Positions 19,132 through 57,322 of a DNA stretch of 64,000 nt are shown here, one piece after another. Every line of letters starts with the position of its first letter. Position 1 is the stretch's first letter. The stretch comes from Blastocystis sp. Blastoise (taxonomy: Eukaryota > Protista > Bigyra: Opalinata), in the NCBI GenBank assembly GCA_039096225.1, contig JBBPEB010000020.1:468123-532122 (forward strand), in the 5' to 3' direction. The position numbers and the translations under genes are program-made. The notes beneath the pieces were generated by a model. The model was not told the DNA's origin. It did no database searches and saw only the letters and a program-made list of their open reading frames with translations.

Positions 19132-20027
19132 ATTCTTCCGTTCTTCGAACTGCAGAAGGGGGTATGCAAACCCCGCATAGAGTCTGCGCGACGCGCGCAG
19201 CCATAAGCGGGGAAGACATCCCCCCTTTTTGTTCTCGACGGAAGAATTAATAACATTTCTGAAGTAAAATAACCATGGGAGTGTAGGGTAGTGTGTGTGT
19301 GTATTTATTTTTTCCCATGTTTATTTATTTTTAATTTATTTGTGTTCTGATTCCAACGTGAAACGTAAAGTGATCAAGGAGAAACTCATAGTAATCATAA
19401 AAGAAATAAAATACACAGTCCAACCCTCCCCTTTACAGGGAATATTCATGGAAAATGACTCCATCGTTGGTAAAGTGAGTAAAATAATCACGGGAATACA
19501 GAAAGAAATACGAAAAGAAGCACAGAATGTGCTAAATAAACACACACCCCGACCCTCCCTTTATATAGAGAAAAGATGAAATGGATGGTTCTATCTAAAA
19601 AGAAATAATAAAAATAATCACGGGAATATATAAAAATAAAAATGTATGTATAGTGATCAATAAATAATATAAAAAGTCATGATAATCATAAAAAATTTAT
19701 ATAAAAAAGAGTAAAGTGATCAAGGTATGTATTTATAGTGGGTGAAAGAAAAGCTGGTGGTGGTGTGGTCTTGTAAAAAGATGTACCCACCACCACGATT
19801 ATAACGAGAGACTTTTGGAAACAAGGGTGACCGTTATGGAAATAGGATGCGTCATCGTGAATTGTCCAATCAAATTGCTTAAAAATGTAAAAATGAGGGA
19901 TTTTGGAACACAAAAACACAATTATATTGGGGAAACTGGGGAAACTAATTGTGTTCCAGTGGTTTTAGGTGGCGGGATGTATATCAATTTTCTAGAATAT
20001 TCTAGAACATTCTCGAAACTTCTAGAA
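19132..20027 (+). repeat. Left terminal inverted repeat of the PLV (896 bp)
   Basis: Reverse complement of 57285-58180; same length, about nine substitutions seen by eye. Confidence 0.97.
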
Positions 20028-20037
20028 CATTCTAGAA
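19990..20037. promoter_or_regulatory. Heat-shock-element-like array (10 alternating TTC/GAA units) upstream of tyrosine recombinase 1
   Basis: TTCtaGAAtaTTCtaGAAcaTTCtcGAAacTTCtaGAAcaTTCtaGAA. Confidence 0.75.
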
Positions 20038-20125
20038 CATGAGAATCTTAGATATTTTATTTTGATTTTCTTATGTATTATTCTTTTGAAAATAGAAGTT
20101 TTAGAGATTCTACTTGAGAAAATCA

Positions 20126-21061
20126 ATGAAAAATACAAATTATGACAAGTATCTTTTGGTTATACAGAATTCAAATTATTCTGATATTTGGAAAAAACGT
20201 TTAACCAATTATTTCAATTTATATATTTTCCCATTACCATTTAAAAAGTTCTCAGAATTCTTAAAGAATCCTTATTCATTCATGGATTATATGGTAAATG
20301 AACGTAAAATCAAAATTAGTCCAATGAAATCGTTATGTGAATTGATATTATTTATTATACGTAATGTTTCTTCATTAAATAAAGAAGGTATTTTGAATAA
20401 ATGGTGTGAATTTTATGTGATTATCAATTCAATGTATGAAAAATATCTGGATAATAAGAAACGTACTTTAATTCAAGATCTTATTAAAGATGGTATTACG
20501 ACTCCATATTTACATGAATATCACGATAAATTAGAAAATTATAATCCATTACGATTAATATTAGATTTTTACTCCTATCTTCCTCCTGCTCGTGCTGATT
20601 ATGCTCAATTATTCATTCTATCACCAGAAGATACTATTGATCCAGCTATTCATAAGAATTATATTGTTTATGATAAAGAGAAACATACTGGTTCTATTCT
20701 ATTAAATGATTATAAAACTGCTGGTAAATACTCTACAATTCAATTAGATGCACCAAAAGAATTGATTGAAGATCTAGAATTACTCTTAAAAAGAAATCCA
20801 AATCGTAAATTTATATTTGAATCTTCTGTAAGAACTGGATTTACTACTAAAGCATTTGATTGGTTTGTGAATAAGCATTTAAAACAAATCCATCCAAAAT
20901 TAACCATTAATGCATTAAGAAAATTATATGCTACAACTACAACCAATACATTCCAAGATATAGAAAATTCTGCTTCTGCTTTATGTCATAATGATTATAC
21001 ACATATTAATTCTTATGTATCTTTAGAAAATAATAATTTATTTAAAAAATTAATTGAATAA
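20126..21061 (+). CDS. Tyrosine recombinase/integrase 1 (PLV/virophage type)
   Basis: Catalytic-type motifs PPARADY (R), DYKTAGKY (K), NALRKLY (R), LCH..THINSY (H/Y); first ATG at 20126. Confidence 0.85.
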   Translation: MKNTNYDKYLLVIQNSNYSDIWKKRLTNYFNLYIFPLPFKKFSEFLKNPYSFMDYMVNERKIKISPMKSLCELILFIIRNVSSLNKEGILNKWCEFYVIINSMYEKYLDNKKRTLIQDLIKDGITTPYLHEYHDKLENYNPLRLILDFYSYLPPARADYAQLFILSPEDTIDPAIHKNYIVYDKEKHTGSILLNDYKTAGKYSTIQLDAPKELIEDLELLLKRNPNRKFIFESSVRTGFTTKAFDWFVNKHLKQIHPKLTINALRKLYATTTTNTFQDIENSASALCHNDYTHINSYVSLENNNLFKKLIE

Positions 21062-21134
21062 TTTTATGTTTTCATGTTTGTTTTGCTTTAATTTTGAATA
21101 TAACTAAACAACTAGTAATAAAAGGATATAAAAA

Positions 21135-21509
21135 TTAATTAAAAGGTAAGAAAGATAGATTATTATTATTATTTTGATATTGATTTTGTTGTTGATTACT
21201 TTTCATAGTTGGCATAAACATATTATTGGGTTGAATAAGATTCTTATCATCTTGATATTGATTCTCATTCTTCATATATTGTTTATCCAATAACATTTCA
21301 AGACGTTGATGAATCACAGGATCATCTATATAAAGTAACATATTTCTACAATAACTCAATTGCAAATCACTAAGATTTTTGTTGTTATTATTATTTAAAA
21401 ATTGTTCTAATAGATTCGCTATTTCATTCTTTTTAGATTTAATTCCTTCTTCTTTTAGATTCTTCATCACACGACAAAAATAAGAATAACTAAGATATTT
21501 CTTGTTCAT
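21135..21509 (-). CDS. Viral hypothetical protein (124 aa, N/Q-rich C-terminus)
   Basis: ATG-initiated ORF within the gene-dense PLV, with an HSE-like array ~100 bp upstream. Confidence 0.65.
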   Translation of the reverse strand: MNKKYLSYSYFCRVMKNLKEEGIKSKKNEIANLLEQFLNNNNNKNLSDLQLSYCRNMLLYIDDPVIHQRLEMLLDKQYMKNENQYQDDKNLIQPNNMFMPTMKSNQQQNQYQNNNNNLSFLPFN

Positions 21510-21604
21510 TATTTAAATTAACCAATGATTAAACAAAACAAATTAATTATATAAAACACTAATATAATAAATTAAAGATTCTACAAATAGAGCCAGTTCA
21601 AAAT

Positions 21605-21638
21605 GAATGTTCTAGAATGTTCTAGAACGTTTCTTGAA
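21605..21638. promoter_or_regulatory. HSE-like array (5 units plus 2 out of phase)
   Basis: GAAtgTTCtaGAAtgTTCtaGAAcgtTTCttGAA. Confidence 0.6.
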
Positions 21639-21767
21639 CATATAAAAGTAAAGTAAAATATATATAATAATAAGAACAATTTCAATAACTGACAGTATTT
21701 CATTTACATTCTCTAAAGTTTCTGCACTACGATCTAAGTAGTAATTGCCAAATCGTTTCTTTGTCAT
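21612..21767 (-). CDS. Small viral protein (51 aa) with one predicted transmembrane segment
   Basis: ATG at 21767; hydrophobic ILSVIEIVLIIIYILLYFYMF followed by KKR; has its own upstream HSE-like array and downstream TGTTTTGTT. Confidence 0.45.
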   Translation of the reverse strand: MTKKRFGNYYLDRSAETLENVNEILSVIEIVLIIIYILLYFYMFKKRSRTF

Positions 21768-21831
21768 AATAGTATTAAATATTAAACAAAACAAATTAAT
21801 TATACAAAATATTAATATAATAAATTAAAGA

Positions 21832-21849
21832 TTCTAGAATATTCTAGAA
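21832..21849. promoter_or_regulatory. HSE-like array (4 units)
   Basis: TTCtaGAAtaTTCtaGAA. Confidence 0.5.
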
Positions 21850-21853
21850 GGTT

Positions 21854-22387
21854 TTAACAAGGCATAAGATTTCCATTAGAAAGTAAATAAAGTAAAGAAT
21901 AATAAAAGCAACCATTTGCATTACTTGTAGTTTTTTGGTGTTGAATAGGATTATATTGAATATTATGATTTTGAATAAATGATTTTGAAAAAGTAGGTTC
22001 ATTTCCTAATGATGAATAGTGTTCTATGTTTTTATTACCATTATAAATAACAGCTTCAAAATGACCATTATAAGGATCACTAGGACTTTCATGAAAGATC
22101 ATATTAAATTTAGTTTGATCTTGATCTATATTTTGTTCAAAATCATCATAACTATTATAATAATTATAAGATTGAGAATTCGTTTTATTTAATTGTTTCA
22201 TAACATTTTCAGCACGATCACAAGCAACAGAAGAGGTAGGTTTATTTAAATAAGCATAATTATATAATTGAGATATTAAAGAATTTGGTATATTACAATA
22301 TTGAGATAGAGTTTGTTTGAAATTATCAGGGGATCTAGGAGTAACATGACGAGTTTTATCAGATATAATAGGATTATCGCAATTCAT
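21854..22387 (-). CDS. Probable adenain/Ulp1-like cysteine (capsid maturation) protease
   Basis: Motif order and spacing GHFEAV ... HYSSLG ... QHQ ... GCFYYSLLYL resemble the His...Gln...Cys layout of Polinton/virophage proteases; typical size. Confidence 0.6.
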   Translation of the reverse strand: MNCDNPIISDKTRHVTPRSPDNFKQTLSQYCNIPNSLISQLYNYAYLNKPTSSVACDRAENVMKQLNKTNSQSYNYYNSYDDFEQNIDQDQTKFNMIFHESPSDPYNGHFEAVIYNGNKNIEHYSSLGNEPTFSKSFIQNHNIQYNPIQHQKTTSNANGCFYYSLLYLLSNGNLMPC

Positions 22388-22419
22388 TGAATTTTGAATA
22401 AGTTTTTCATCTTTACTCT

Positions 22420-24066
22420 TTACCAGATCCCCTCCCCTGAGTTTTTTGATAACATATACTTCTTTTTTTTCCAGAACAATTCGTCACCTGTATTTAATGT
22501 TTCATTATTATCTATTTTCTGTTTTATAATTTGTAATTGTTTTAAATCAGCCTCTTGTATTTTACGTTTTTTTCGTGCCACTCCTGCAGGTATTATAAAA
22601 TCTGTATAAAATGATACTAATGGATTCAAATCACCACCTCTTTTCTTTTTAGCTTCTTTTCCTCTTCTCATTCGTTCTAAGAATTCTGCTTTACTTAATT
22701 TAACTCGACCACCATAACCTCTACGTTTAGCTCTTCTTGCAGCTATTCGTTTATCCCTTTCATCTTCTTTCCATTTTCTATCGACTTTCTCTTTATCATT
22801 TTGAGGGAAACCATAAATCTTATAAGGATAACTTTGTTCATCACGAGGCATAGGTTTATAAGGTTGAGGAGGTTGCGAATGTTGAGGAGGTCGAGGTTGA
22901 GTAGGTCGATCAACTTGTTGTTGTGGAGGTGGTGGAGGTTGAACAACGGGTTGTGGATGTAGTCTATCATCTTCATCAAGAGCATCTTGCATTTCATCAG
23001 CTACATCATAATATCCTTCAAACATTTTATTTATTGTATTTCCTGAACCTATTTGCTTTTTCATTTCATTTAATGCTTGTTGACGTTTTAATTTTTCCAT
23101 TTCAAATTCCATATCATTTAATTCACTTGATTGTTGTGCCAAATGTGTATCATAATAAGCTTTTCTACCTTTAGCAAAAGAATCCATACCTTTATCAACT
23201 ACACCTAATAGAGCTGGTGCATAATCCATTAATCCACTCCAGAATCCACCACCTCTTTTTACTCTTAATATACCATCACCACTTTGAGCTGAATCTAAAT
23301 CTATATATTTTGGTATAATAGAGGGTCTTAACATTCTTCTTAATTTTGGATTCTTAATCATTTTCTTATTTTTAATTGCATTCATAATTGCTGAAGCAAC
23401 TGATATAGGAATCTTTCCACCACGTTTAATTTTATGTTCATAGAATCTTTTGAATTCATCATCAAGATCATGATGACCATCACCAACATATTGAGCTAAA
23501 ATAGCTAATGCATCACGAGCTTTTCTATTAGCTTTTTTATCTACAATAGCATCTCTTATATCTAATACATTTCGTTGATACATATCTTTTACTTTATTTT
23601 TAATTGCATCACCAATACCAGAACCTTGATTATTCTCAAATTTATTGATTTCTGATTTATTTGGAATAATTCCTCTACCAGATTTACGTCTTGGTTTACA
23701 TGGATTTAATACTTTATATTGACGATCTTCACCATCTATTTTATCTTCTTCTGGACCAGCTGCTTTCATTACACCTTTACCTGCTGCTCTAGCACGAATT
23801 AAAGCACCATTTCCTTGTGGAACAGCATCTTTACCAAATGTTTTAGAACGATCTACATAATCATCTTCTTTACCATCATGTATTTCTTTACTTTCTAAAG
23901 TAGACACAGGCATAGATGAATTTGGACCTATTTCATGAAATATTGGATTATATTGATCCATTTTATGTAATGGTTGTGTATTATATCGCCTATATTCTTT
24001 TCCAGTTGAAATTAAATTCATACCAAAAGTACCAGGACTTGGCATTCCTAATATACAACTTTGCAT
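22420..24066 (-). CDS. Basic, GG/GxG-motif-rich putative virion core precursor (548 aa)
   Basis: Many RGG/GSG/GxG motifs, K/R-rich and P/Q-rich tracts; N-terminus paralogous to 55511-56995. Confidence 0.6.
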   Translation of the reverse strand: MQSCILGMPSPGTFGMNLISTGKEYRRYNTQPLHKMDQYNPIFHEIGPNSSMPVSTLESKEIHDGKEDDYVDRSKTFGKDAVPQGNGALIRARAAGKGVMKAAGPEEDKIDGEDRQYKVLNPCKPRRKSGRGIIPNKSEINKFENNQGSGIGDAIKNKVKDMYQRNVLDIRDAIVDKKANRKARDALAILAQYVGDGHHDLDDEFKRFYEHKIKRGGKIPISVASAIMNAIKNKKMIKNPKLRRMLRPSIIPKYIDLDSAQSGDGILRVKRGGGFWSGLMDYAPALLGVVDKGMDSFAKGRKAYYDTHLAQQSSELNDMEFEMEKLKRQQALNEMKKQIGSGNTINKMFEGYYDVADEMQDALDEDDRLHPQPVVQPPPPPQQQVDRPTQPRPPQHSQPPQPYKPMPRDEQSYPYKIYGFPQNDKEKVDRKWKEDERDKRIAARRAKRRGYGGRVKLSKAEFLERMRRGKEAKKKRGGDLNPLVSFYTDFIIPAGVARKKRKIQEADLKQLQIIKQKIDNNETLNTGDELFWKKKKYMLSKNSGEGIW

Positions 24067-24141
24067 TTTTTTATTTCAATTATAAAATTATTTATAAACA
24101 AAACAAATATATTAATAAAAAATAAATTTAACATTAAAAAT

Positions 24142-24735
24142 TTATAAATTAGTTAAATCAATAATAGTATCATTACTATTAGTATTCTTCGTAGATTTAT
24201 CGATGACTTTAATAGAACGAGCATATAAACCAATATAATACTTGTTATTATAACGATGAATACCATGTATTGTAAATAATACTTTACATAACGTATTTGG
24301 TGGAATATACTTTTCACGTATTTCTTCGTAAGTTAACTTAGGATCTTTACCGATATTAATCTTCTTATCTCTTTTATCAGTAATATCAATAGTAACATTC
24401 TTCGATGCATTAATAGGTACTTTAATTGTAATCTTATATTTACCATTATCCATACGTACAAAATTAACAATATCACCATCAGGACATAATTCACATAATT
24501 TACGATAAAGTTCTTTATAAGCAGTTAAGAATACTTGATTATCATCTTCAATTGTTAATAAAGTCCATTTATCACGTGTAACAATATAACCAAATAAACA
24601 TGGTGTAGCATCAGTAGAAATACATACACGATGATTATTATTTAAAAGAACAGCATTTTCTTTGGTGTCATCCCATTGTAAATTAAAGTTAGAAGTATCA
24701 AGAATAGTAGGTTTTTTAAATTCAGTTGTAGACAT
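24142..24735 (-). CDS. Putative ssDNA-binding (OB-fold-like) protein
   Basis: C-terminal beta-rich pattern IPPNTLCKVLFTIHGIHRYNNKYYIGLYARSIKV recalls viral SSBs; the function is tentative. Confidence 0.45.
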   Translation of the reverse strand: MSTTEFKKPTILDTSNFNLQWDDTKENAVLLNNNHRVCISTDATPCLFGYIVTRDKWTLLTIEDDNQVFLTAYKELYRKLCELCPDGDIVNFVRMDNGKYKITIKVPINASKNVTIDITDKRDKKINIGKDPKLTYEEIREKYIPPNTLCKVLFTIHGIHRYNNKYYIGLYARSIKVIDKSTKNTNSNDTIIDLTNL

Positions 24736-24812
24736 TTTTAGTTAAGTATTTAGTAAAAATATAAGTATTTTAATACTAATATTTTACGATATTCTTTTCA
24801 AATGAATCAATT

Positions 24813-24860
24813 TTCGAGAAGGTTCTAGAAGGTTCTAGAAGGTTCGAGAAGGTTCTAGAA
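24813..24860. promoter_or_regulatory. HSE-like array (10 units) upstream of the SSB-like gene
   Basis: TTCgaGAAggTTCtaGAAggTTCtaGAAggTTCgaGAAggTTCtaGAA. Confidence 0.75.
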
Positions 24861-25055
24861 AAAAAGAACACTTGAATAATCTAATGGAAACATTTTAACG
24901 GAATCGAACCATGATACTGTGGTTACATATTTCTTTAATAGATCCATTAGACCATTCAAGAATTCTATTTGAAACTATTCTATTCTCCATTTAAACTTTG
25001 TGTAATTAATTTTAAAATAATAAACAAAACAAAATAATTAATTAAATAAAAATAA

Positions 25056-25583
25056 TTAATGATCAAATATTTCAGACATAGAAGGAATAGAATATTCGGA
25101 TAATAATGAAACAATTTCTTTAGAATCATCATGAATCTGTTTCAAATCTTGTTTCTGACTTTCAATCTTTGTTTTTAAATGATCAACAGTACAATAAATA
25201 CCATTTAATATATTATCAGCTGTTTCAATAGTTTGAAATAAAGATTCGAATTGACTGGATATATTTGTTAACTCCTCATTTGTAAATAATAATGCTTGCT
25301 TATCAGGATTTGTATTTACTTGATCTTGAAATTGTATTGGTTGATTGTTAACGGAATGATATCTATCTGGATTTTTAGATACGTAAACATCATTGATTGG
25401 ATGAATTTCTTGAGGTGGATCTTCAAACATGATTTCGTCACGCGAATTAAAACAGAAATCATTATCATTGGGTAAAGCCATAGGATTTGCAGAAACACTA
25501 TTTTCAAATGGATTCAACAAGGGGGATATCATGGCTTGACCGAAAGGGGATAAACTGGCAGAAAGACTATCAGGAATTTCCAT
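25056..25583 (-). CDS. Viral hypothetical protein (175 aa, acidic, C-terminal coiled coil)
   Basis: ATG-initiated ORF followed by the TGTTTTGTT signal. Confidence 0.7.
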   Translation of the reverse strand: MEIPDSLSASLSPFGQAMISPLLNPFENSVSANPMALPNDNDFCFNSRDEIMFEDPPQEIHPINDVYVSKNPDRYHSVNNQPIQFQDQVNTNPDKQALLFTNEELTNISSQFESLFQTIETADNILNGIYCTVDHLKTKIESQKQDLKQIHDDSKEIVSLLSEYSIPSMSEIFDH

Positions 25584-25852
25584 GATTATTTAAACCTTCA
25601 AAAGTATTTTTATACAATATATTAAATATACTATTTTTAGTGTACAGTTCTTCATTTCAGTTGCTAACAAAAGCCTATTGCTTCCAGCTGGAAAATAAGC
25701 CAATAAAATAACTTATTTCGTATGACACATCGTCGTCATCGTCTAATTGTGTTTTACTAATTTTTTTATCCAATCAGATTACAGATGCCAACTATACTCG
25801 TCATTGAAACACAAATAAAAAATGCTAAGTCGACAAAATTAGCCAATCAAAT

Positions 25853-25870
25853 GAACCTTCTAGAACATTC
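25853..25870. promoter_or_regulatory. HSE-like array (4 units) in a divergent intergenic region
   Basis: GAAccTTCtaGAAcaTTC; CCAAT motifs nearby. Confidence 0.5.
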
Positions 25871-25981
25871 CATAGAGATTCTACACTGTCTCCTAGAATA
25901 TTTAATATTCCATTTAAATGTATTATTTATTTCATTTTGATAAATACAAATTTTCTCTCTGTAACGATATTCGCGATTATA

Positions 25982-26605
25982 ATGCAATTTAATCTTTCTG
26001 CTGATTCCCGTAAATGTCTTCAAACTGTTCGTATGGAACTTCTTAAGAATTCTAAGAAGGCTGTTGAAGTTCATAAGAATGTTCTTCGTGATATTGATTT
26101 ACATCAGTCTCAATTGAATAGAGAAAAGAATCTATTGGGTATTGCAAAATCTAAAGAACGTCTTGCTTCTTTCGAAGTCGAAAACTATAGATCAGCTTTA
26201 AAACGTATAAACGCGGTTATTAAAGGTCTTGAAGATTATGAAGAATTCGCTGCTGATATTTATACTCAACAACTTAATGAAGAACAAGATATTCAAGATA
26301 TTATCAATACTGAAGATCTTTTAGAAAGTGATAGAACTACTATTTTATGTTCTGAAGATTCTAAAGAACATTCGAATTCTCAAGATGATGATTTTGATAT
26401 TATGAAATTCCATATGGAAGATGGATTTCTTTATGATGAAAAAGGTAAAGTTTATACTTATGAAGTTGTTCATGCTAAGAGTATTAACAAGATTAAAAGA
26501 GATCCTTCAAAACAAATGTATTTCTGGGATGGTATTTTATATGATAAGAATGGATGGCCTCATTCATGTACATATATTAATAGTCAAGAACCAATTGAAA
26601 TTTAA
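25982..26605 (+). CDS. Viral hypothetical protein (N-terminal coiled coil, duplicated DGxLYDxxG motif)
   Basis: First ATG at 25982; EDGFLYDEKG and WDGILYDKNG repeats. Confidence 0.7.
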   Translation: MQFNLSADSRKCLQTVRMELLKNSKKAVEVHKNVLRDIDLHQSQLNREKNLLGIAKSKERLASFEVENYRSALKRINAVIKGLEDYEEFAADIYTQQLNEEQDIQDIINTEDLLESDRTTILCSEDSKEHSNSQDDDFDIMKFHMEDGFLYDEKGKVYTYEVVHAKSINKIKRDPSKQMYFWDGILYDKNGWPHSCTYINSQEPIEI

Positions 26606-26715: not shown

Positions 26716-26863
26716 TTCTAGAAGGTTCTAGAAGGTTCTAGAATGTTCTCGAAGGTTCTAGAACATTTAAAAATATAAAGTAATATTTACTATTATAGAA
26801 TGTTCTAGAAGGTTCTAGAATGTTCTTGAATGTTCTAGAAGCTTCTAAAACTGACTTCTAGAA
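26716..26863. promoter_or_regulatory. Two HSE-like arrays (10 units at 26716-26763; 10 units at 26798-26845) upstream of the primase-helicase
   Basis: TTC/GAA invariant at 5-bp period, with variable spacer dinucleotides (ta, tc, tt, gg, tg, gc). Confidence 0.8.
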
Positions 26864-26931: not shown

Positions 26932-29900
26932 ATGGAAAATTCACAAATTCATTTTGTTTATACTTTTGGTTCCTTTAATCATGATAATTCAAAAGATAAT
27001 CATAGTGAAATTATTATACCAAATCCATTACCATTTTATAAAAGTCTATTTACTAATTATCAAAATCAAAAAGAATTATTACATTATATTGATTGTACTC
27101 CTTGTAATACATCAACTAATTATAGAAGATTATGGTTTGATTTAGATTATCACCAAATATCTGATGATTTTTCTTTTCTAACAGATTCTTTTATTCATGA
27201 ATTTATAGAAGAAATGTGTAATCATTGTATTCATTATTATAATCAAGAATTTATTTCGCTTGTGTATACAAAGAAAGAAGTGAATAAGAAGACAGTTCAT
27301 AATGAAATACATTATTCATGGGGAATTCATATATATACAAATTGGTTTGTAAATGGTGATTATTTATTTTTCTTATATAATAGTATGATTCTGAATACCA
27401 AATTGGTTGATTTATGTAAAATGAATAATTTAGATATAAAAGAATTCATTGATTATAATGTTATTGGTAAACCCAGAAAGAATAATGGTTGTATGTTTCT
27501 TGGTTGTAGTAAAGATAATTCTCCATCTACTTATAAATTATATGAAGAATATACCAATAAAACATGGAAGAAAATAGATGATGAAATCGATGAACATTAT
27601 TATTTCAAAACATTATTGAATTATAAGAATGAAGATGATATTATAAGTGATATTATTAATCCTATTATTTTTTATAAATTAAAACAATATTCACGTTATA
27701 AACGTTATTATGCAAGATTAAATAATTGTTCACGTACTATATTATGTTCTATACAAGATATTAAAGATATTCCTATGTTGATTTCTACAGATACTATATT
27801 GGATACTACAGCATCTAAAGAAGCTTTATTAGAACGATATTTATTATTGATTGGTTCTATTGAAGATATGAATTATTTTGAATCTCATAATACTTGGTAT
27901 AAATTATGTTGTGCAGCAAAACAGATTTGTAATACAACAAGAGGATTAGAATTATTTAAAAATTATTCATTACGTTATGGTCATGATCGAAGTGATGATG
28001 TAATTGAATCTACATGGAATCATATACAAGTTGATCCTACTCATTTATCGAATAATTATATTTTGAAGATATTAATGGATAATAAATTATTTAATAAAGA
28101 TGATGATAATGATTTCATATTTATGTCTATTTTAGAATGTATTCAATCCTTTAATCTTGTAGATTCACAAACATTAGTTATGTTATTTCAATTATTAGAA
28201 TTTAATGAAATTGTTTCTATTATATTAGATAAAGATAATTTTATCTTATATACATTTGATGAATATAATATCTTAAGACGTTGTAAGAATAATTATGATA
28301 TTAATTTCTTTGAAACCAAAATAACTACATTTATGAAATCGATTGTCGAGAAATTCAAATTATCAAGATTATATTCCAAAGAGAATGAACAACATCAAAA
28401 AATAGTTGATAAAATAATGTCTGCTTCTGTTACTAATGAATATCATTATAAAGAATGGTTGAATCGTTATTTGAAGACTTATGGTAAATCTTATAAAGAA
28501 TATTTAGATACTTATATGGTTCATAAAGAACGTGTTATCTATACACAACTTGGTTATTTATATCCAAAAGAATCTACAGAAGAAGATCCTAGACAATATT
28601 ATATCCAACCATATCATAAAGAAGATATGGTGTTTGAAGATTTATTAATTGATACTGAATTTAATGTAAGTTGGAATATTAATAATGAACAGAAAGATAT
28701 TATCCAATTATTTGAACAACATATTGCAAGATATTGTGAATTCGATAAGAAATATGAAAGTATTATGTTACGTATCTTAACCACTGCTTTCTATGTCAAT
28801 ACTCAGAAAACAGTTTCTTATATATTATATGGTAGTACAGGTAGTAATGGTAAAACAATAACAACTGATTTAATTTCTCGTATTGTAGGTAGTAATCAAT
28901 GTATTATAGTAAATCCAGATAATTTAGAAGAAACATCTATAGCTCCTAAGATTGTAGATATGTCTAATAAAACAATGTATTATATGAATGAATTAATAGA
29001 AGAAGATGTTACTGGTAGAAAGAAAACATTTAATCCATTCTCTTCTAAAGTCTTTAAAGAAATAGCAGAAAAGAAAGAAGGTGCTAGTGCTCGTAAATTA
29101 TTCAGTAATATATTTACAAAAGTTCATTTCACGGGTACTTTATTTATGACAAGTAATATCCAACCTACTGCTGTGAATGCTGGTCCTATTGAAAGAAGAG
29201 TCTGTTTCTTACCATCATGTTGTCGTTATTTCCCTCCTGGTAATGCTAATTTATATGAAGATTATGTAGATCATAATTTACCTAAACGTAAACAGACAGT
29301 AGAAAAGAGATTGAAACCTAATCATTATGAAATGGATTATACTCTATCCGATAAATTCTATCAGAATCGTTCTATTATCTTTAGTTATCTAGTAAGTAAT
29401 TATTTCTATTCTAGTATGCAATTAGATATGCATGAATTAGATAATGAATATCATATAAGTGAATGTAAGAAACGATTCTTTGATCGTAGTACAGAAGGAT
29501 ATGATTTGAAATCTTTTGTTGATAACCATATTACTATAGATCCTTATTATTTGAATGTAGTTACTATTGAAGATATTTTTAATAGTTATAAGAAAGTGAA
29601 TAATAATAATCAATTTACGATTAAGAAAGATTTAGATAAATTTACAAATGCTTTATTTGGTTGTTTAAGTAGTAAAGATACATTCAATTCTATAGATATT
29701 GTGAATATTCATAGAAAACATACTTCAAATTTCTATAAGGGAGGGAATGCTATTGGTATTTGTGGTTTAATGATTGATAATACTTATAATGAATGTGTAG
29801 ATACAGATTTATTCTGTTTATCCAATTGTTTATCTAAGAAAGAAGAAATTGTTTATAGTGAAGATCAATATCATAATACGTCATCAACAAAACGAATTTT

Positions 29901-33028: not shown

Positions 33029-33200
<172 letters not shown>

Positions 33201-45405: not shown

Positions 45406-45646
45406 TATGTTGCATAACATTTTGAAATTGAAATGGATCTGTTAACACTTCTACACAAAAGAATGGTTCTTCCATATCATCTATTTGAATTCGTTCTTCA
45501 TTACGAAATTTCTTACATATTGTCTTTATCCATTTCTTCCAATTTATACTTGTTGATAATTGTATTTTCTTCCAATGTAATAATTGATCTATACAATTTG
45601 TAAAGAATTCTTCACAATCTTTATCTGAATAACCTGTTGATTGCAT
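45406..45646 (-). pseudogene. 5' part of tyrosine recombinase-like gene 2
   Basis: ...NVMQH|TQTEAPGQQ...; 241 + 1556 nt = 1797 nt, giving a 598-aa protein after removal of the element and one TSD copy. Confidence 0.85.
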
Positions 45647-48713: not shown

Positions 48714-50186
48714 ATGAGAATCTTAAGAATTAAAGATAATATTCCTATTCAAAGTGATACTGATATTCTATCAAGTCCTTATATCTTTCAATATCATTGG
48801 ACTAATGTGGATAATACTTATATCAATTTCAATCAATCCTATTTGGATCTTACTGTCAAAGCAACTGTTACAGATAAAGCTGGACCAGTTTCTGTTTATT
48901 TAGATGAAACAGGTACTTCTGTTAGTTTCACCTATGATCAATTATGTCAATATTTCTTGGATCAATTAGTTCAAAAAGCAAATATTTATTCTATTATTGA
49001 TTCCACTGATGTTGAAATGGTTTATACATTACCTGATGGATCTGATCGTGCTTTGAAATATGAAGAAAACTGTACACATGCTTCACGTGGTCGTAAAATG
49101 ATTTTATTAAAAGATATCAGTAAGAATGATTTAGAAAAATCTATGTATGGTGAAGATTTATCTGCAGATACTTATGAATTGAATTCTATTCGTTATATAC
49201 GTGCACATCCAAATGAATCTATTCATATTGCTATTCCTTTATATCTTATTAGTGGTTTAGGTGTTGATGGAGATTCTTTAATATTAACTAAACATTTCAA
49301 TATGTTATTTAGAACTAGTACTATTGAATCCTTAATTGATAATAATATGAGTATTTATTTCAAGAATGGTGGTAAAGATCTATCAACACAATGGTTACAT
49401 CTAACTGATGAAAAATGGTTTAAGACATTTGAATTGGAATCAGCTACTATGAATTTAATGACTTATAAAGATATTCAATTCCAAACGAATGAATTATATA
49501 AAACTATACCTACATGTATTCAAGTCGATTATCAAAATACAAGAATAACTAGTGATCATTTCAATATCAATAGAGCTTTACCATTTATACCAGAATATAT
49601 ATTATACTGGTTTACAAATGGTTATAGTTCAACAACTATTAGTAATATAGCTAGTCCATCTGTATGGCCTAAATATCAAAGTTGTTTGATTGGTGATGTT
49701 CAAATGTTCCCTCAAACTGAATTCCCTACTCAAATGTATTATCATAATCTTACTACTAAAGGTCATGTCTTCAATAATGAAGAAACTGCTAGTTTATCTT
49801 GTCCTAATAAAAATTTATATTGTTTATGGGCTGATAATTCAAATCCTGAAACTATTCTTAAATATGATGAATGGATTAAACATCCTATTTATATTATTCC
49901 AACTAAAGCATTAATGAATATCCAATCAGATAGTGGTATAGAAATGAATTTTGATTGTAATCTAGATGTTCATGATATTGAATATGGTCATGCTGATTCA
50001 TCTACTGTTCCTGATGGATATACATGTACATATAATGAAACTACTAAAATATGGACACCTGACACTGGTGCTTCTTATGCCGTTGCTTCTCATGCTGGTA
50101 TTTATAAACATATTAATACTGAACTAAATGAGAAGCATCCTTATACATTACATATGATTGCTGTACGTAGTGTACGTGATATTTAA
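48714..50186 (+). CDS. Putative double jelly-roll major capsid protein, paralog 1
   Basis: Beta-rich, N-terminal YINFNQSYLDL motif, IPLYLISGL, FIPEYILYWF; sits in the capsid-penton-ATPase cluster. Confidence 0.7.
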   Translation: MRILRIKDNIPIQSDTDILSSPYIFQYHWTNVDNTYINFNQSYLDLTVKATVTDKAGPVSVYLDETGTSVSFTYDQLCQYFLDQLVQKANIYSIIDSTDVEMVYTLPDGSDRALKYEENCTHASRGRKMILLKDISKNDLEKSMYGEDLSADTYELNSIRYIRAHPNESIHIAIPLYLISGLGVDGDSLILTKHFNMLFRTSTIESLIDNNMSIYFKNGGKDLSTQWLHLTDEKWFKTFELESATMNLMTYKDIQFQTNELYKTIPTCIQVDYQNTRITSDHFNINRALPFIPEYILYWFTNGYSSTTISNIASPSVWPKYQSCLIGDVQMFPQTEFPTQMYYHNLTTKGHVFNNEETASLSCPNKNLYCLWADNSNPETILKYDEWIKHPIYIIPTKALMNIQSDSGIEMNFDCNLDVHDIEYGHADSSTVPDGYTCTYNETTKIWTPDTGASYAVASHAGIYKHINTELNEKHPYTLHMIAVRSVRDI

Positions 50187-50356: not shown

Positions 50357-51580
50357 ATGGAAGGATTCCCAAGACAATTCTTACCTTCAAAGGCAAATCA
50401 AACTATTAAACCTGTACAAATTCCTATTCTAGTTTCTACTAGTCAAGATTTATTAAATCAACCTTATCCATTTGAATTCTTATATAATTCAGTGGATAGT
50501 CCTTTTATTGATTTCAGCAATTCATTCTTAGAACTGAATTTCAATATTACAACAAATGCAGCTACAACTAGTTCTGTTGTACAACATTCTAATATCTATA
50601 GTATTATTGATAAAATTACTACAGATCTTACGTTTGTATCTCCTACGGGTCAAGATATTCTTATTAATTATTCTGAATCTTCTATTGAATCCAGTAAAGC
50701 AAGAAAATTTGTTACTATTAAAGAATTAAGTAAAGATGAAATTGATAAATCTATGTATAGTATGACAGAATGCTTATATAATACAACCTTAAGCAGTATT
50801 TCTGGAATGCAAAGTTCTACTAAAGCTCAAGTTATTATTCCTTTATCTCTTATTACTGGTCTTGGTACATTTGATTGTGCTATTAAAGTAAAATCTTTGA
50901 AGATGCAATTCGTTACAAATTATTTAAAGAATCTATTTACAGGTACGACTAAAATCACTGCATTAACATTTGATCGTGTTTATATTCATCTTCAACAAAT
51001 TTATGATATTAATTTTGGTAATGATCCACGTGCTTTAATTAAATGTATTCCTAATAATTGTCAAATATCTGCATTTACTACACCTGTTTATTCACAAACA
51101 TTCACAACAGCAGGTAAACCAACTCCACAACAATTCTTATCCAATAGAAGTGTTGTTTTCGTACCTGATTACTGTATGCTATATTTTACAACTCAAGAGA
51201 AGAGTATGATTCCTATTAAGACTGAATTATTGAAGATGTGTCAATTCCAAATTGGTGGTCAAAATATCTTACCAAAGACGGATTTCCCTACTACGTATAA
51301 AACAACGAATCCATCACAAATTATTCCTAATGCTATGCTTTATAATACTTGGAGATGTAATAGTCATCCTCAATCTCCTTTAAACGGTGAAAAGTGGTAT
51401 GAACAACCTATTTATATATTCCCTATTTCAAGTGTTGTTGATGTCAATACTCGTAGTGGTTGTGAAGTTAATATCTCCTTATTAACTGAATATAATGGTG
51501 CAAATATTACTAGTGGTACTTATACTTTATATGCTCATTTTATATTTGTTAAATTTGTTAGAGATGGTGCAACCAATTAA
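50357..51580 (+). CDS. Putative double jelly-roll major capsid protein, paralog 2
   Basis: FIDFSNSFLEL, IPLSLITGL, FVPDYCMLYF; colinear with paralog 1. Confidence 0.72.
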   Translation: MEGFPRQFLPSKANQTIKPVQIPILVSTSQDLLNQPYPFEFLYNSVDSPFIDFSNSFLELNFNITTNAATTSSVVQHSNIYSIIDKITTDLTFVSPTGQDILINYSESSIESSKARKFVTIKELSKDEIDKSMYSMTECLYNTTLSSISGMQSSTKAQVIIPLSLITGLGTFDCAIKVKSLKMQFVTNYLKNLFTGTTKITALTFDRVYIHLQQIYDINFGNDPRALIKCIPNNCQISAFTTPVYSQTFTTAGKPTPQQFLSNRSVVFVPDYCMLYFTTQEKSMIPIKTELLKMCQFQIGGQNILPKTDFPTTYKTTNPSQIIPNAMLYNTWRCNSHPQSPLNGEKWYEQPIYIFPISSVVDVNTRSGCEVNISLLTEYNGANITSGTYTLYAHFIFVKFVRDGATN

Positions 51581-51676: not shown

Positions 51677-52348
51677 ATGACATCAATATCTCATCTAAGT
51701 AAAATTACAAGTCAAATCTGTCATGAACAATTCAATTATACTTTGGATTTAGTAGGTAAAAATATAACTCATATCAATACATTAGTGAATACAAGTGATA
51801 TCATTAATATTCCAGAATTCAATATTAAGATTTATAATAGTGATGGTAGATATACATTTCCAGCTGGAAATTATACTTTAGAAGATTTTTTAGATCAATT
51901 ATATGAAATTGGAAAAAAATTGAAATCCTATGTTGAAGGAGAACCTTATGGTTTCAGCTATAATAAAGAAACTAAAACTTTTAAATCAAATCATTGGTTT
52001 GAATGTGGTCTTAGTTCTGGACTATTTAAATACTTAGGCATTAAATCATCATACTTTTCACCGGGTGATACAATCGTATTTACTGATGAATATATATCCA
52101 ATAATATTTCATGGTATAAGATCTATATGTTACGTGTGTATTGTGATATTATTAATAAAGATAATGATTTGATTTCTATTCCTTTATATGCTAAACAAGG
52201 ATTTGATAATACATTTGCTTTAAGTGATTTATCTATTCCATGTATTGATGGTAAATATACAGATATCCAATGGGAAGTATATGATCAATTAAATAATCCA
52301 ATTGATTTATCAAATACAAATCTTTATATATACTTTACTGCATCTTAA
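51677..52348 (+). CDS. Minor capsid protein (penton, single jelly roll)
   Basis: FPAGNYT, LRVYCDII and IQWEVYDQLNNPIDL motifs of the Polinton/PLV penton type; lies between capsid and ATPase. Confidence 0.75.
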   Translation: MTSISHLSKITSQICHEQFNYTLDLVGKNITHINTLVNTSDIINIPEFNIKIYNSDGRYTFPAGNYTLEDFLDQLYEIGKKLKSYVEGEPYGFSYNKETKTFKSNHWFECGLSSGLFKYLGIKSSYFSPGDTIVFTDEYISNNISWYKIYMLRVYCDIINKDNDLISIPLYAKQGFDNTFALSDLSIPCIDGKYTDIQWEVYDQLNNPIDLSNTNLYIYFTAS

Positions 52349-52417: not shown

Positions 52418-53455
52418 ATGGTGAATAAAATAAATCCATTAAAAGAAACACGTAAAGGATGTGGAGTCTTAGAATTCAAATATGGAAAATCACATCATAA
52501 AACATATGAATCAAAATTTATATTGATTATTGCAAGAACATTCTCAGGTAAATCTTTCTTAACTGTGAACCTCTTATGTTCTATGGATCTTAAAAATAAA
52601 TATAAACAAGTCACAGTAATTTGTCCTGATGCATCCAATAAGAATGAATGTTATACATCCTTTCAAGATATTTGTGAGCATGCTGGAATTGATTATAAAT
52701 GGTATGATTCTGTAGATGATAAATTTAAAAAGATTAAAACTGTTGATGAATTAGTCAATACATATAAATTACCAGAACATAATTTTATTGTATTGGATGA
52801 TATCTATCCATTATCTAGACAAACCAAACAATTGATTGTATCTATATTATCTAAAGGTCGTCATTATAAACAGAATGCTATTATATGTCTTCAAAGTCAT
52901 ACAGATGTTACCAATCAATCTATATTAAGTCAAGTATCTCATTTCTTTATTAATAGTCAAATCTTAAAACGTGATCCTGGATTCTTACCAGATAAATTAA
53001 AGATTATGCCATCAAATTTAAATGAAATTCTTACAGATGAAGAATTAATGAATGATCCACATCAATTCTTTATGTTAAAACAAGGTAGTGATGATTTAAC
53101 GATATGGACAAATCCTGATTGTGGTAGTAAACAGAATGTCTATAAGATGGTAAAGAAAAGGAAATGGACAGAAGAAGATAGTGAAAAAGAGAAACGAGAA
53201 GAACAAGGTGAAGTATCAGGTAGTGGTATTAAACGTCCTAATGAACATATATCTACATATGAAAAGAAAATGAAGAAGTTTTTACCTGTTGAAGAAGAAG
53301 TCTCATTGAAAGGTATTGAACGAGATGAAAAAGATAAACCTAAAGAATCCATCTTACAAATCATACAAGATCAAATCATACAAGATAGTCAACGACGCAT
53401 TTTCAATCCTTATTTAAATAAAAAACATTATTCTGGTTATCCTTCTTTTCATTAA
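52418..53455 (+). CDS. A32-like (FtsK/HerA) genome-packaging ATPase with a charged C-terminal extension
   Basis: Walker A ARTFSGKS, Walker B FIVLDD, KGRHY arginine motif, ICLQS. Confidence 0.92.
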   Translation: MVNKINPLKETRKGCGVLEFKYGKSHHKTYESKFILIIARTFSGKSFLTVNLLCSMDLKNKYKQVTVICPDASNKNECYTSFQDICEHAGIDYKWYDSVDDKFKKIKTVDELVNTYKLPEHNFIVLDDIYPLSRQTKQLIVSILSKGRHYKQNAIICLQSHTDVTNQSILSQVSHFFINSQILKRDPGFLPDKLKIMPSNLNEILTDEELMNDPHQFFMLKQGSDDLTIWTNPDCGSKQNVYKMVKKRKWTEEDSEKEKREEQGEVSGSGIKRPNEHISTYEKKMKKFLPVEEEVSLKGIERDEKDKPKESILQIIQDQIIQDSQRRIFNPYLNKKHYSGYPSFH

Positions 53456-53508: not shown

Positions 53509-54546
53509 ATGAGTTCAATTACAAAAAGATATTTAAAACAAAATTGTGATCCACGATTATTTGGAGGATCACCACCAAAATCAAATAGACGTGATCTTTA
53601 TCATAAACGTTATGTAAGATATGGAGGAACTGGATTTGAAGAAATTGTTAGACAACAAGCTAAAGATGCTGATTGGGCTGATTTTAAAAATGGTGTCTAT
53701 ACTGCATTACCTATTTTAGGTACATTAGGAGCATTTGCTGGATATAATTATTATCAGAAACGTAAAGAACAAAAACGTCAAGAAAAAGCAAAAGAAGAAA
53801 AGAAAAGACAATTTGAAGAACATATTGAAGATGCTAATAGAGATGATGAATTATATAACGATGATGATACTTATCAACCAAAGAGAATAACAAGAAAAAT
53901 GATGGCTGATGATGATAAAGATTATAATAATGCAAATCTTGAAGATGAAAATTATGATGATATATTTGGTCAAGGTATACATAGAAGGCATCAGAAACAT
54001 CGTAAAGAACATGGGAGTCACCGAGAAAAAGAAAAGAAAACAAGTAAATTCGTAACTCCTCAAATAAGAATTATTGCTAAGAAGGCTATTCGTTCTAGTA
54101 ATGTAAAGTCTAATAAGAAGAAATTACAAGATATAAAAGAACGATTACCTAAAAATGATGAGCATGTGTCTGTACGTGATATTGTTAATGTCGTTATCGA
54201 TAAAGAATATCCTATGGATCCAAAACAAAAGCATTCTATTATTGCGAATACTGCTATTAAAACTATTAAAACGATTGTTCCTATTGTAGTGAATGCATTA
54301 AAATACTATTATCCTTCTCTTGGTATCCCTATTGATTTCGCTTATAATATGATTACTACTGATGATGATAAGAAACGTAAAGAAACTGCTGATAACTACT
54401 TTAAAAATCCTAGTGGAAGTGGTGTTACAAAAGAGAATGCTGAACGTTGTGGTGGTGCTCTTGTCAACTCTACATCCTTTGATACTACTACTAATTTAAT
54501 TATTAATCTTGTTCAATTCTTCTTAAAAAAATTCCATTTAAATTAA
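53509..54546 (+). CDS. Putative virion protein (345 aa) with GG/GxG motifs and a hydrophobic segment
   Basis: LFGG, YGG, GQG, GSG, CGG; hydrophobic ALPILGTLGAFAGY; alternating acidic and basic tracts. Confidence 0.65.
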   Translation: MSSITKRYLKQNCDPRLFGGSPPKSNRRDLYHKRYVRYGGTGFEEIVRQQAKDADWADFKNGVYTALPILGTLGAFAGYNYYQKRKEQKRQEKAKEEKKRQFEEHIEDANRDDELYNDDDTYQPKRITRKMMADDDKDYNNANLEDENYDDIFGQGIHRRHQKHRKEHGSHREKEKKTSKFVTPQIRIIAKKAIRSSNVKSNKKKLQDIKERLPKNDEHVSVRDIVNVVIDKEYPMDPKQKHSIIANTAIKTIKTIVPIVVNALKYYYPSLGIPIDFAYNMITTDDDKKRKETADNYFKNPSGSGVTKENAERCGGALVNSTSFDTTTNLIINLVQFFLKKFHLN

Positions 54547-54622
54547 TTATTTTAACTTTTATTATTTCATAATTAATTATTTGTTTTGTTATATAATTAT
54601 TTTTAAATTAATACAATAAATA

Positions 54623-55420
54623 ATGCAAAGTAATTTAGGAGATAGTGTAACTCTCTATGATATTTTATCAAGAAATCAGAAAAAACAATCTTGGGATCCA
54701 TGGTTACCCAATTCATATATTTGTCAAGATGAACAACCTGTACAACCATTAGCACATGATCCTAATGCACAAGGATCTATGTATAGTTCAATGGCAGTTC
54801 AAGCATTAAGAAATCATGGTCAATCACCTGAAGATATGTTTATAGCTACTATGAATTCAGCTAAAGCTAATGGTGATACAAATAGATATACATCCATGTT
54901 ATCTCAATGGCAAACGAATTATGGTATTCCTACTACAAGTAAGATATGGTATGATGCTAGTAATCCTAATAACTATCAATATGAAAAACTTATTCATACT
55001 GTAAGAAATCCTAATGAAGACTATACAGTGAAACCACAACCAGAATCCATGAATTCTAATTTCACTGAAGAACAACCCAAACCAGAACCTGAAAAGAAAC
55101 CTGAACACGAAAAGAAACCAGCTAAAGAACCTGAAACTAAACCTGAAACTGAAAAGAAACCAGATAAAGAAGATGATAATACTCCAAAGAAATTTGAATT
55201 CGATATGAATTTACAACAAGATACCGACGAAAAAACATATTATAACGCCACTTATGGAAAGTATAAATTCAAATGGTATACTGATGGATCTATTGAATGC
55301 ACCAATAGTGAAGATTTCGGAAATAATAATATATTCTACAAAAATAAAACATTATTTGTTGAAACTGATGATAAATCAATGGATATTGACGATTATTTAA
55401 AAAATACTCATAATAATTAA
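54623..55420 (+). CDS. Viral hypothetical protein (265 aa, PE/KK repeat linker)
   Basis: ATG-initiated ORF followed by the TGTTTTGTT signal. Confidence 0.75.
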   Translation: MQSNLGDSVTLYDILSRNQKKQSWDPWLPNSYICQDEQPVQPLAHDPNAQGSMYSSMAVQALRNHGQSPEDMFIATMNSAKANGDTNRYTSMLSQWQTNYGIPTTSKIWYDASNPNNYQYEKLIHTVRNPNEDYTVKPQPESMNSNFTEEQPKPEPEKKPEHEKKPAKEPETKPETEKKPDKEDDNTPKKFEFDMNLQQDTDEKTYYNATYGKYKFKWYTDGSIECTNSEDFGNNNIFYKNKTLFVETDDKSMDIDDYLKNTHNN

Positions 55421-55510
55421 TGATACTATTAATATACTAACTATATAATATAAATAATTTCTTTTTTTTTTGTTTTGTTTTAAAATTCATAATTATTTTA
55501 TTAATTTAAA

Positions 55511-56995
55511 ATGATACAAAGTGCTCGTTTAAATGTTTCAAATAAAGGATTAGTAGGCGTAAATCATCGTGCTACTGGTCATGAATATCGAAATTATATT
55601 GTTCCAGGATCTATTCCTGATGGAGAAGAACGTTATCCAATTAATTATTCTATTGCTCCAAATTCATTATATGCTGTTAAGAAAATTGAAAGTAATATGG
55701 TCAATAGAGCAACATCCAATCCATTTTTCTCCTATTTATCAGAAACCAGACAAGATATTATACAAAGTTCCTTAGAAGAATCAGAAGAAAGTGAACCAAT
55801 AGATGAAGGATCTGGGTTATTACCTGATGGTAGAATTCCGAAGAATTTCACAAGAAAACTCATTTATGCTCATGATTATGTCTTACCTTATATGAAACAA
55901 AATCATATGTCTGATTATGCTAAATATTCTAGATTATTAAATCCTCGTACAATTGATAGTGCTATTGATTTTACTAGAAGAGATCGTGATGGTTATTTAT
56001 ATTCTAGAGGTGGTAATTTATTTTCTAATATTTATCACACTGTAAGTGATGTATACAATGTGTCTGATAAATTAACTGGAGGTATTAATAATATCACTCA
56101 TGGAATAAGTAATGCTGTTGATTATGGTGCAAATAAATTTAAAGATCTCAAGAATTGGTGGAGAGATATTAATGTTGATCCAAAAGAAGGATTCAATGAT
56201 ATTAAAGGAAAACTTGTAAGTGATAGAAATAATTTATATGATAATTGGAAATTAACTGATGATAATGAAGCTAAGAAAAAGAATAAAATATTAGCTGATA
56301 ACTATTTTAGATTTGCTCATATGTCAGGTAATGATACTAAAGAACAAAGACTTAACAAAACTAAATCTTTAGAAGATCAAGCAAAAACATTTCATAAAAA
56401 TTATATTCCCTATGCAGAAAACCCTACATTTGTTAATAAAGTTGTTAATACTGCAACAAATGTAGGAACACCAATTGTTAATGGTGTTAAAAAAGTTGCA
56501 AACTCTATTGTTAGTGGTACAAAGAACGTATTTAATAGTTTTTCTGATTGGTGGTATGGTAAAAATCCAGATGAAGAAATACCACAAACAGAAAATCCAA
56601 TAGAAACAAATAATAATGTTATACCAACTTCTTCATCTACTCCTGATACTCTAACACAAGAAAATATTCATAATATTACTATAGAAGATTCAAATCCTCC
56701 AAATTTAATTCCTCTTATGAATGATCCTACTGTTCCTTTACCTGATACTGTTCCAATGTCTCAAGCAATCACGAATAATTTCACTCCAAATATTACACCT
56801 GTAGCACCTATTTCTAATCCAGTAGAAAATGTCACTCTTGAAAATAAAAGAAATAAAAAAGAAGATGATGAATTTCAATCATTTGATGAAGATGATGGTG
56901 AGGTATTTTATGATCTCGAAGAAGGTAATGGATTACGTAGAAAAAGACGTATTTCAAAAAATAAAAAATTAAGAAATAAACGTAGAAAACATTAG
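55511..56995 (+). CDS. Putative virion core precursor (494 aa) with a very basic C-terminal tail
   Basis: N-terminus paralogous to 22420-24066; EGSG, SRGG and EGNG motifs; C-terminal LRRKRRISKNKKLRNKRRKH. Confidence 0.7.
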   Translation: MIQSARLNVSNKGLVGVNHRATGHEYRNYIVPGSIPDGEERYPINYSIAPNSLYAVKKIESNMVNRATSNPFFSYLSETRQDIIQSSLEESEESEPIDEGSGLLPDGRIPKNFTRKLIYAHDYVLPYMKQNHMSDYAKYSRLLNPRTIDSAIDFTRRDRDGYLYSRGGNLFSNIYHTVSDVYNVSDKLTGGINNITHGISNAVDYGANKFKDLKNWWRDINVDPKEGFNDIKGKLVSDRNNLYDNWKLTDDNEAKKKNKILADNYFRFAHMSGNDTKEQRLNKTKSLEDQAKTFHKNYIPYAENPTFVNKVVNTATNVGTPIVNGVKKVANSIVSGTKNVFNSFSDWWYGKNPDEEIPQTENPIETNNNVIPTSSSTPDTLTQENIHNITIEDSNPPNLIPLMNDPTVPLPDTVPMSQAITNNFTPNITPVAPISNPVENVTLENKRNKKEDDEFQSFDEDDGEVFYDLEEGNGLRRKRRISKNKKLRNKRRKH

Positions 56996-57069
56996 TTAAT
57001 TTTAATTTGTTTTATTTATTATTATTTTTAAAAACTAAACAATTTGTTTTGTTATTTATAAAAATTAAT

Positions 57070-57237
57070 TTAAAAATCAATAAAATTTTTTATATAATCT
57101 TCATAATCATCCTCACTTTCAGTTTGAATAGTATCCATTTCAGAATCACTATCACTTAATTCATCAACTTCAAAATTTCCATAAGGTTTCCAATTACCTT
57201 CTTTATAATCTGGAGCAAATTGCTTTGGAGAATCCAT
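57070..57237 (-). CDS. Small acidic viral protein (55 aa), not in the ORF track
   Basis: Manual translation MDSPKQFAPDYKEGNWKPYGNFEVDELSDSDSEMDTIQTESEDDYEDYIKNFIDF*; starts 48 bp inside the right TIR array. Confidence 0.65.
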   Translation of the reverse strand: MDSPKQFAPDYKEGNWKPYGNFEVDELSDSDSEMDTIQTESEDDYEDYIKNFIDF

Positions 57238-57284
57238 AATAAATAGTATAAAAATAGAAAAAAAACGAATAATACAATTTGTTA

Positions 57285-57322
57285 TTCTAGAAGTTTCGAG
57301 AATGTTCTAGAATGTTCTAGAA
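57285..57322. promoter_or_regulatory. HSE-like array (8 units) at the inner edge of the right TIR
   Basis: TTCtaGAAgtTTCgaGAAtgTTCtaGAAtgTTCtaGAA. Confidence 0.72.

Follow-up and report, generated by a model that had tools for sequence, protein, structure and literature searches.

Small double-jelly-roll (DJR) viruses that are integrated in eukaryotic genomes between terminal inverted repeats (TIRs) and remain silent until induced are known from the mavirus provirophage and the Polinton-like viruses (PLVs) of Tetraselmis (10.1101/068312, 10.1101/2025.10.09.676808). What triggers endogenous PLVs is still an open question in the published accounts that we consulted, in which giant viruses are the triggers shown so far. 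Control by host heat shock factors (HSFs) is described for a different set of elements: the Arabidopsis Ty1/copia retrotransposon ONSEN carries heat shock elements (HSEs) in its long terminal repeats (LTRs) (PMC13602373), and host HSF1 acts on the Qp promoter of Epstein–Barr virus (EBV) and on the LTR of human immunodeficiency virus 1 (HIV-1), where it aids replication or reactivation (PMC9157408). Here we describe an integrated viral element of Blastocystis sp. Blastoise that shares features with both groups. It lies at approximately 19129-58183 of a window of 64,000 nucleotides (the whole stretch of DNA that was analysed; assembly GCA_039096225.1, contig JBBPEB010000020.1, positions 468,123 to 532,122 of the forward strand), is bounded by TIRs, encodes a DJR capsid protein and contains long HSE-type arrays in front of its putative early genes. 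On balance, we favour the view that these arrays bind a host HSF and that stress would switch on the early genes, which would likely start excision and copying. With somewhat less confidence, just short of an even chance, we propose that the element represents a helper-independent, recently mobile and undescribed family of Blastocystis PLVs in which the host HSF would act as the switch that induces the entire set of early genes.

A pattern scan of the window detected eight arrays of alternating TTC and GAA at an exact 5-bp period inside the element, at 19990-20037 (10 units), 21605-21627 (5 units), 21832-21849 (4 units), 24813-24860 (10 units), 25853-25870 (4 units), 26716-26763 (10 units), 26798-26845 (10 units) and 57285-57322 (8 units), with 61 units in total. 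These are exactly the positions and unit counts of the initial annotation, an earlier reading of this DNA; the number of independent arrays is seven, with 53 units, because the array at 57285-57322, in the right TIR, duplicates the initial 8 units of the array at 19990-20037. One of the ten differences between the left and right TIR is a spacer base of this copy. All eight arrays consist of 4 to 10 contiguous, perfect, inverted nGAAn units and reach the HSE minimum of three. Apart from these, arrays of at least three units occur only twice in the 64 kb, each with 3 units, one in the left flank (18757) and one in a transposon nested in the element (45213), and the scan of the 38-kb non-viral part of the window found no array of more than three units, in line with the earlier claim that the flanks hold nothing comparable. 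In 300 order-3 Markov simulations, the viral part, which here included about 0.7 kb of the nested transposon and the 3-unit site at 45213, yielded on average 0.84 arrays of three units and 0.01 of four units per run, and arrays of five or more units never arose. The number and length of the arrays is thus far beyond chance.

The composition of the units resembles the refined HSF consensus AGAAN, for which longer arrays are reported to bind cooperatively (PMC2871787). Of the 53 independent units, 45 have A as the first base of the pentamer (p 9e-12 relative to the composition of intergenic DNA), and 35 have G or C as the fifth. In tail-to-tail spacers, the bias towards A amounts to 43 of 48 here; the corresponding values are 85 of 382 for prokaryotes (40 arrays), 52 of 192 for IMG/VR (30 arrays) and 372 of 1014 for metagenomes (105 arrays), and an A fraction of at least 0.75 was found in 7 of 7 arrays here compared with 3 of the 40 prokaryote arrays. 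The expectation for A in the AT-rich window is 0.39 per base, so that AT-richness accounts for part, but not all, of the gap to the look-alikes. Deviating bases in the four 10-unit arrays are confined to the spacers (12 of 72, versus 0 of 120 in the cores). The earlier statement that spacers vary around invariant cores therefore stands, with the qualification that the spacers are not free, as those of TTCnnGAA are TA in 19 of 24 cases. The window scan found no long array that is interrupted internally, and seven of the eight arrays taper off at an edge through a unit with a single mismatch. Outside the element, arrays that share this core are rare: look-alikes of at least 8 units were found at 4 loci in IMG/VR, at 40 loci in 596 billion prokaryote bases and at no fewer than 120 loci in metagenomes, and those of at least 6 units at 68 loci in IMG/VR.

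Eight of the 20 viral genes are preceded by arrays, namely those encoding tyrosine recombinase 1, a single-strand-binding (SSB)-like protein, the primase-helicase and five small open reading frames (ORFs). The distance from array to ATG is 88 bp for recombinase 1, 77 bp for the SSB-like gene, and 86 and 168 bp for the two arrays of the primase-helicase; for the small ORFs it is 95 bp (124 aa), 64 bp (51 aa), 111 bp (207 aa), 269 bp (175 aa) and 47 bp (55 aa). Seven genes therefore have an array 47-111 bp from the ATG, with the second primase array and the array of the 175-aa gene as outliers, and the initial annotation had named the right genes with too narrow a range (about 50-200 bp, compared with 47-269 bp). 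For the other 12 genes, including both capsid genes, the ATPase and the core-like genes, no array was found within 300 bp upstream, and over this distance its observation that capsid, penton, ATPase and core genes lack arrays holds. The 548-aa core-like gene and its 177-aa neighbour lie within the array-rich block and yet have no arrays, so that gene class and position can in part be told apart.

Further evidence comes from the signals at the gene ends and from the host. Of the 20 viral genes, 18 have the motif TGTTTWGTT behind their stop codon, at a distance of 13-76 nt on the coding strand and at convergent junctions as well, whereas shuffles gave a mean of 0.31 and a maximum of 3. The motif resembles the Blastocystis downstream gene element. 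The presence of a Blastocystis-type 3' signal behind 18 of 20 genes points to transcription and processing of the virus by the host machinery rather than by that of a helper virus, and such host-type signals argue against a helper dependence of the virophage type. The virus may derive from, or move between, Blastocystis lineages that use the downstream gene element of human subtypes. The HSF-type DNA-binding domain IPR000232 is recorded 2, 3 and 2 times in three tortoise isolates and twice each in five isolates from humans (PMC10690189, supplement file 7), and up-regulation of HSP70 at 41 °C is reported for Blastocystis subtypes 3 and 5 (PMC4151958). For Egoviruses, which were considered as a helper, no gene flux with Blastocystis is reported (10.1101/2024.03.23.586382). 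Contigs of one sequencing run of uncertain kind, presumed to be RNA, which contains 0.38 of the sequence words, match parts of recombinase 1, the core-like gene, the SSB-like gene, the 175- and 207-aa genes, the TIR and the flank within the stretch 18500-26599, a pattern that gives no ranking of genes and plays no part in the argument.

The exact arrays, the AGAAN bias, the restriction of deviations to spacers, the HSF-type domains in the host clade and the host-type 3' signals together make a strong case, at the level of sequence, for HSF sites, and the initial proposal of such sites has gained support from all but the first of these. Based on this evidence, we propose the following hypothetical sequence of events, in which (i) host stress would activate the host HSF; (ii) about three HSF trimers would occupy a 10-unit array cooperatively; (iii) RNA polymerase II of the host would transcribe recombinase 1, the SSB-like gene, the primase-helicase and the five small genes; (iv) the TIR ends, each with an imperfect hairpin of 126 nt, would be processed, excision or copying would start there and viral DNA would be amplified; (v) the capsid module would be expressed later in response to a different signal.

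Several observations weigh against this scenario. The absence of core deviations follows in part from the definition of the arrays, which admitted perfect runs only. With the arrays concentrated in one 7-kb block, gene class is to some extent confounded with position, and recombinase 2, which is transcribed together with the genes on the capsid side, has no array. Arrays with the same core also occur in organisms without HSF, at the 40 prokaryote loci; of the 10 array-containing phage genes that were tested, 7 are replication initiators, and among the 124 ORFs next to long arrays at 92 public loci there was a single heat-shock gene. HSF-type proteins need not be heat-responsive. The downstream gene element is reported to lack enrichment in the host genes of tortoise isolates. 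Finally, this copy of the provirus is probably defective, because its recombinase 2 is split by a transposon.

The alternative that best withstands these data is that the arrays do bind a host HSF-type factor but do not act as a latency switch, serving instead as strong constitutive promoters, as immediate-early promoters that come into use once infection itself has activated HSF, or as targets of an HSF paralogue linked to development, for example to encystment. All sequence evidence for HSF binding applies equally to this possibility and cannot separate it from stress induction; the host clade has two to three HSF-type proteins, and several viruses are reported to activate HSF1 during infection (PMC9157408). 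Arguing in the other direction, stronger heat responses are described to go with longer arrays (PMC2871787), and constitutive synthesis of recombinase and helicase from about 20 copies would be costly. We therefore regard promoters of this kind as unlikely, although they are a serious contender.

Sites of a virus-encoded protein, either origin iterons or the operators of an activator or repressor, would explain the HSE likeness by convergence. The phage initiator genes and prokaryote loci mentioned above speak for this, as do the single array in each TIR and the five small ORFs without known function. Yet the phage arrays are single and intragenic and have an A bias of 0.22-0.27 as opposed to 0.90 here, whereas the element has seven independent arrays before different start codons, an arrangement that differs from a phage-type iteron origin with a single array. 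The separate terminal hairpin, moreover, is a better candidate for an origin. The small ORFs matched no DNA-binding family at relaxed thresholds, in a scan that left out the 55-aa ORF and does not exclude such a protein. Altogether, we consider binding by a viral protein improbable. The phage arrays themselves, of 6-7 TTCnnGAA units inside replication-initiator genes (L008:1139-1996, L014:871-2061, L023:982-2022, L031:898-1935, L039:805-2061, L042:1113-1889 and L052:1129-2037), are probably origin iterons. Among other look-alikes, a 2.7-kb viral contig has a 6-unit HSE-like array (L068:998-1025) 111 bp before a CRESS-type Rep gene and is possibly a second HSF-wired virus; a Ty3 gag gene has an array of 8 units (L138:4001-4038) 641 bp upstream, accompanied by additional HSE-like sites, which recalls ONSEN; and intergenic 6-unit arrays with strong AGAAN character occur on a contig of a giant-virus metagenome-assembled genome and on a small viral contig (L044:1501-1528 and L053:1484-1511).

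A role of the arrays mainly as a decoy, in which amplified copies would titrate HSF and weaken or divert the stress response of the host, is very improbable: 61 units per copy in about 16-21 copies would offer many sites, but a decoy does not require sites 47-111 bp upstream of the ATGs of a single gene class. Least probable of all are neutral 10-bp minisatellites grown by slippage, for although the array at 24813 comes close to a pure tandem repeat and simple repeats abound in the host DNA, deviations are confined to spacers, spacers differ among arrays, all arrays are promoter-like in position and the non-viral part of the window has no array above three units.

The element that carries the presumed HSF sites comprises 25.2 kb without the nested transposon. 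Its left TIR (19129-20027, forward strand) has a length of 899 nt and ends on the inside with the first 8 units of the array at 19990; the right TIR (57285-58183, reverse strand) is 99% complementary to it (10 differences). The outer end of the left TIR forms an imperfect hairpin of about 126 nt (19127-19252; -36.5 kcal/mol, z -8.07, 0 of 200 shuffles), and a matching end is present in the right TIR. This hairpin is a candidate origin or recombination end. It is GC-rich and recalls hairpin telomeres; given two recombinases and no PolB found, it may be an origin or a resolution site. A DNA transposon of 13.9 kb (31538-45405) with CACTG ends and a TAT duplication splits the recombinase 2 gene and is not viral; it holds a 738-aa ORF with a weak DUF4218 match and much low-complexity DNA. 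In the left flank, a related transposase-like ORF of 787 aa (6079-8442) also matches DUF4218 weakly, and a satellite of 17-24-bp units extends over approximately 9300-12000. No tRNA genes were found in the window.

In the array-rich block, tyrosine recombinase 1 (311 aa; 20126-21061, forward strand) has a profile match to recombinase 2 (probability 92%, E 5.7e-7) and a weak match to the Pfam family Phage_integrase (E 0.084). It is followed on the reverse strand by a 124-aa ORF with no assigned function (21135-21509), a 51-aa ORF with a hydrophobic stretch and its own 3' signal (21612-21767), a 177-aa ORF (21854-22387), a Lys/Arg-rich core-like protein of 548 aa with GG motifs (22420-24066), the SSB-like protein of 197 aa (24142-24735) and a 175-aa ORF with a C-terminal coiled-coil-like part (25056-25583). 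The array at 21605-21627 is also coding, as it overlaps the last codons and the stop of the 51-aa ORF, and two further units follow after a one-base shift. For the 177-aa protein, the His...Gln/Cys spacing resembles, in our assessment, that of an adenain-type maturation protease, and database searches gave no match; three basic proteins carry xGG motifs, which could be cut sites of this putative protease and have no database support. The 197-aa protein has a language-model match of 0.95 to clusters of nucleocytoplasmic large DNA viruses (DUF5871/DUF2738), and we take its putative role to be single-strand binding. The 175-aa protein was considered as HSBP1-like, for which there was no Pfam support at E up to 1. 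Its gene shares the array of a divergent promoter (25853-25870) with the 207-aa ORF (25982-26605, forward strand), which has no usable family match. The primase-helicase (1000 aa; 26932-29934, forward strand) matches the DNA primase family PHROG 1156 (E 2.4e-9).

Tyrosine recombinase 2 is encoded on the reverse strand in two parts, the C-terminal part at 29979-31535 and residues 1-81 at 45404-45646, with the true start at 45646; in sibling copies, it has 598 aa. Its structural model, which is weak (predicted local distance difference test, pLDDT, 55), aligns with Cre at Z 8.6 and a root-mean-square deviation of 5.5 over 274 residues. This model had no Foldseek match at E 0.001, and no protelomerase was among the best 50 structural matches. 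The genes beyond the transposon include, on the reverse strand, a 140-aa ORF (45714-46136) and an 811-aa protein that is a candidate minor capsid-like protein (46205-48640), and, on the forward strand, a second major-capsid paralogue of 490 aa (48714-50186) with 31% identity to the DJR major capsid protein of 407 aa (50357-51580), a putative penton of 223 aa (51677-52348), a P-loop ATPase (52418-53455) and three genes for proteins of 345, 265 and 494 aa, two of them basic and core-like (53509-56995). A 55-aa acidic ORF on the reverse strand (57070-57237) lies next to the array of the right TIR. The model of the 407-aa capsid (pLDDT 80.8) has its best match among solved structures in the Sputnik capsid (E 4e-12, template modelling (TM) score 0.47) and among predicted structures in a protein labelled 'MELD virus sp.' (TM 0.66, E 7e-16, 14% identity). 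The ATPase matches PHROG 2666 of the head-and-packaging category (E 1.2e-10) and is likely the packaging ATPase, which we assume from its motifs to be of the A32 type. The penton candidates of 223 and 811 aa had no family match in Pfam or PHROG.

With a DJR capsid, a packaging ATPase, a primase-helicase, tyrosine recombinases, TIRs and a size within the range of 15-40 kb, the element fits a Polinton-like provirus of the tyrosine-recombinase/primase-helicase type. The Polinton/Maverick/adintovirus class was set aside, as no Pfam or PHROG match to a protein-primed PolB or an rve integrase was found among the element ORFs of at least 98 aa. That the element is a provirus, as first annotated, is supported by the folds of capsid and recombinase, the TIRs and the sibling copies. 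The closest homologues, with 93-100% identity, are themselves labelled Blastocystis sp. Blastoise and form clusters distributed over many contigs (19 primase, 21 recombinase 2, 16 175-aa and 10 recombinase 1 sequences), which corresponds to about 16-21 near-identical copies. Mean protein identity is 99.4% for 12 of the 19 primase sequences and 99.2% for the 10 of recombinase 1, with the capsid excluded from this comparison because ungapped alignment breaks down at indels; siblings so similar at the protein level suggest that the family moved recently. The GC content of the window is 18-31% per 2 kb, in agreement with the 21-23% given for the tortoise clade of Blastocystis (PMC10690189). Divergent families, with capsid identities of 48-50%, are present in the same genome. 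Farther relatives, with 55-61% capsid identity, are encoded on ENA/Logan contigs of up to 24 kb; relatives are found on many such contigs, some of which, at 23-24 kb, have about the length of a full element, and this hints at a widespread virus group. Searches of IMG/VR with the capsid, a capsid alignment and a recombinase alignment gave no match, nor did searches for relatives in GTDB, JGI metagenomes and phage records. In the literature covered, which included few subscription journals, we found no report of HSE arrays in a PLV or of the present family, and the main text of the assembly paper contains neither the term 'polinton' nor a treatment of viruses (PMC10690189).

The element points to a specific host factor, a stimulus and an order of gene expression in a culturable organism, which makes the proposal directly testable. 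If true, it would constitute a eukaryotic counterpart of SOS prophage induction that could be triggered by heating a culture. Beyond this, the commonest gut protist would have a DNA virus, and Blastocystis genetics could draw on strong natural promoters that are inducible.

Among described viruses, the PLVs with tyrosine recombinase and primase-helicase correspond most closely to this element in gene set, size and TIRs (PMC10120064), and it is set apart from them by two capsid paralogues, two recombinases, terminal hairpins and the HSE arrays. MELD viruses of Blastocystis hominis share the host genus and provide the best match among predicted capsid structures; in contrast to the present element, they are described as carrying PolB and integrase genes (PMC8502044), and the capsids are only distantly related in sequence. 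The iteron-like arrays of phage replication initiators have the same TTCnnGAAnn core and 10-bp period but lack the AGAAN bias in addition to being single and intragenic. Mavirus and the Tetraselmis PLVs are switched on by a giant virus, in the case of mavirus through the giant virus's late promoter and, as stated for mavirus, independently of host stress (10.1101/068312), whereas the promoter and 3' signals of the Blastocystis element appear to be of the host type. The EBV Qp and the HIV-1 LTR are single promoters of animal viruses, in contrast to long perfect arrays across a replication module. ONSEN is a retrotransposon with one promoter and proven induction, while the element described here, for which induction is proposed, is a capsid-encoding double-stranded DNA provirus with arrays before eight genes. 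HSF-driven mobile elements and viral promoters are thus already known; what would be new is a DNA provirus whose entire early module is placed under HSEs that are long and perfect.

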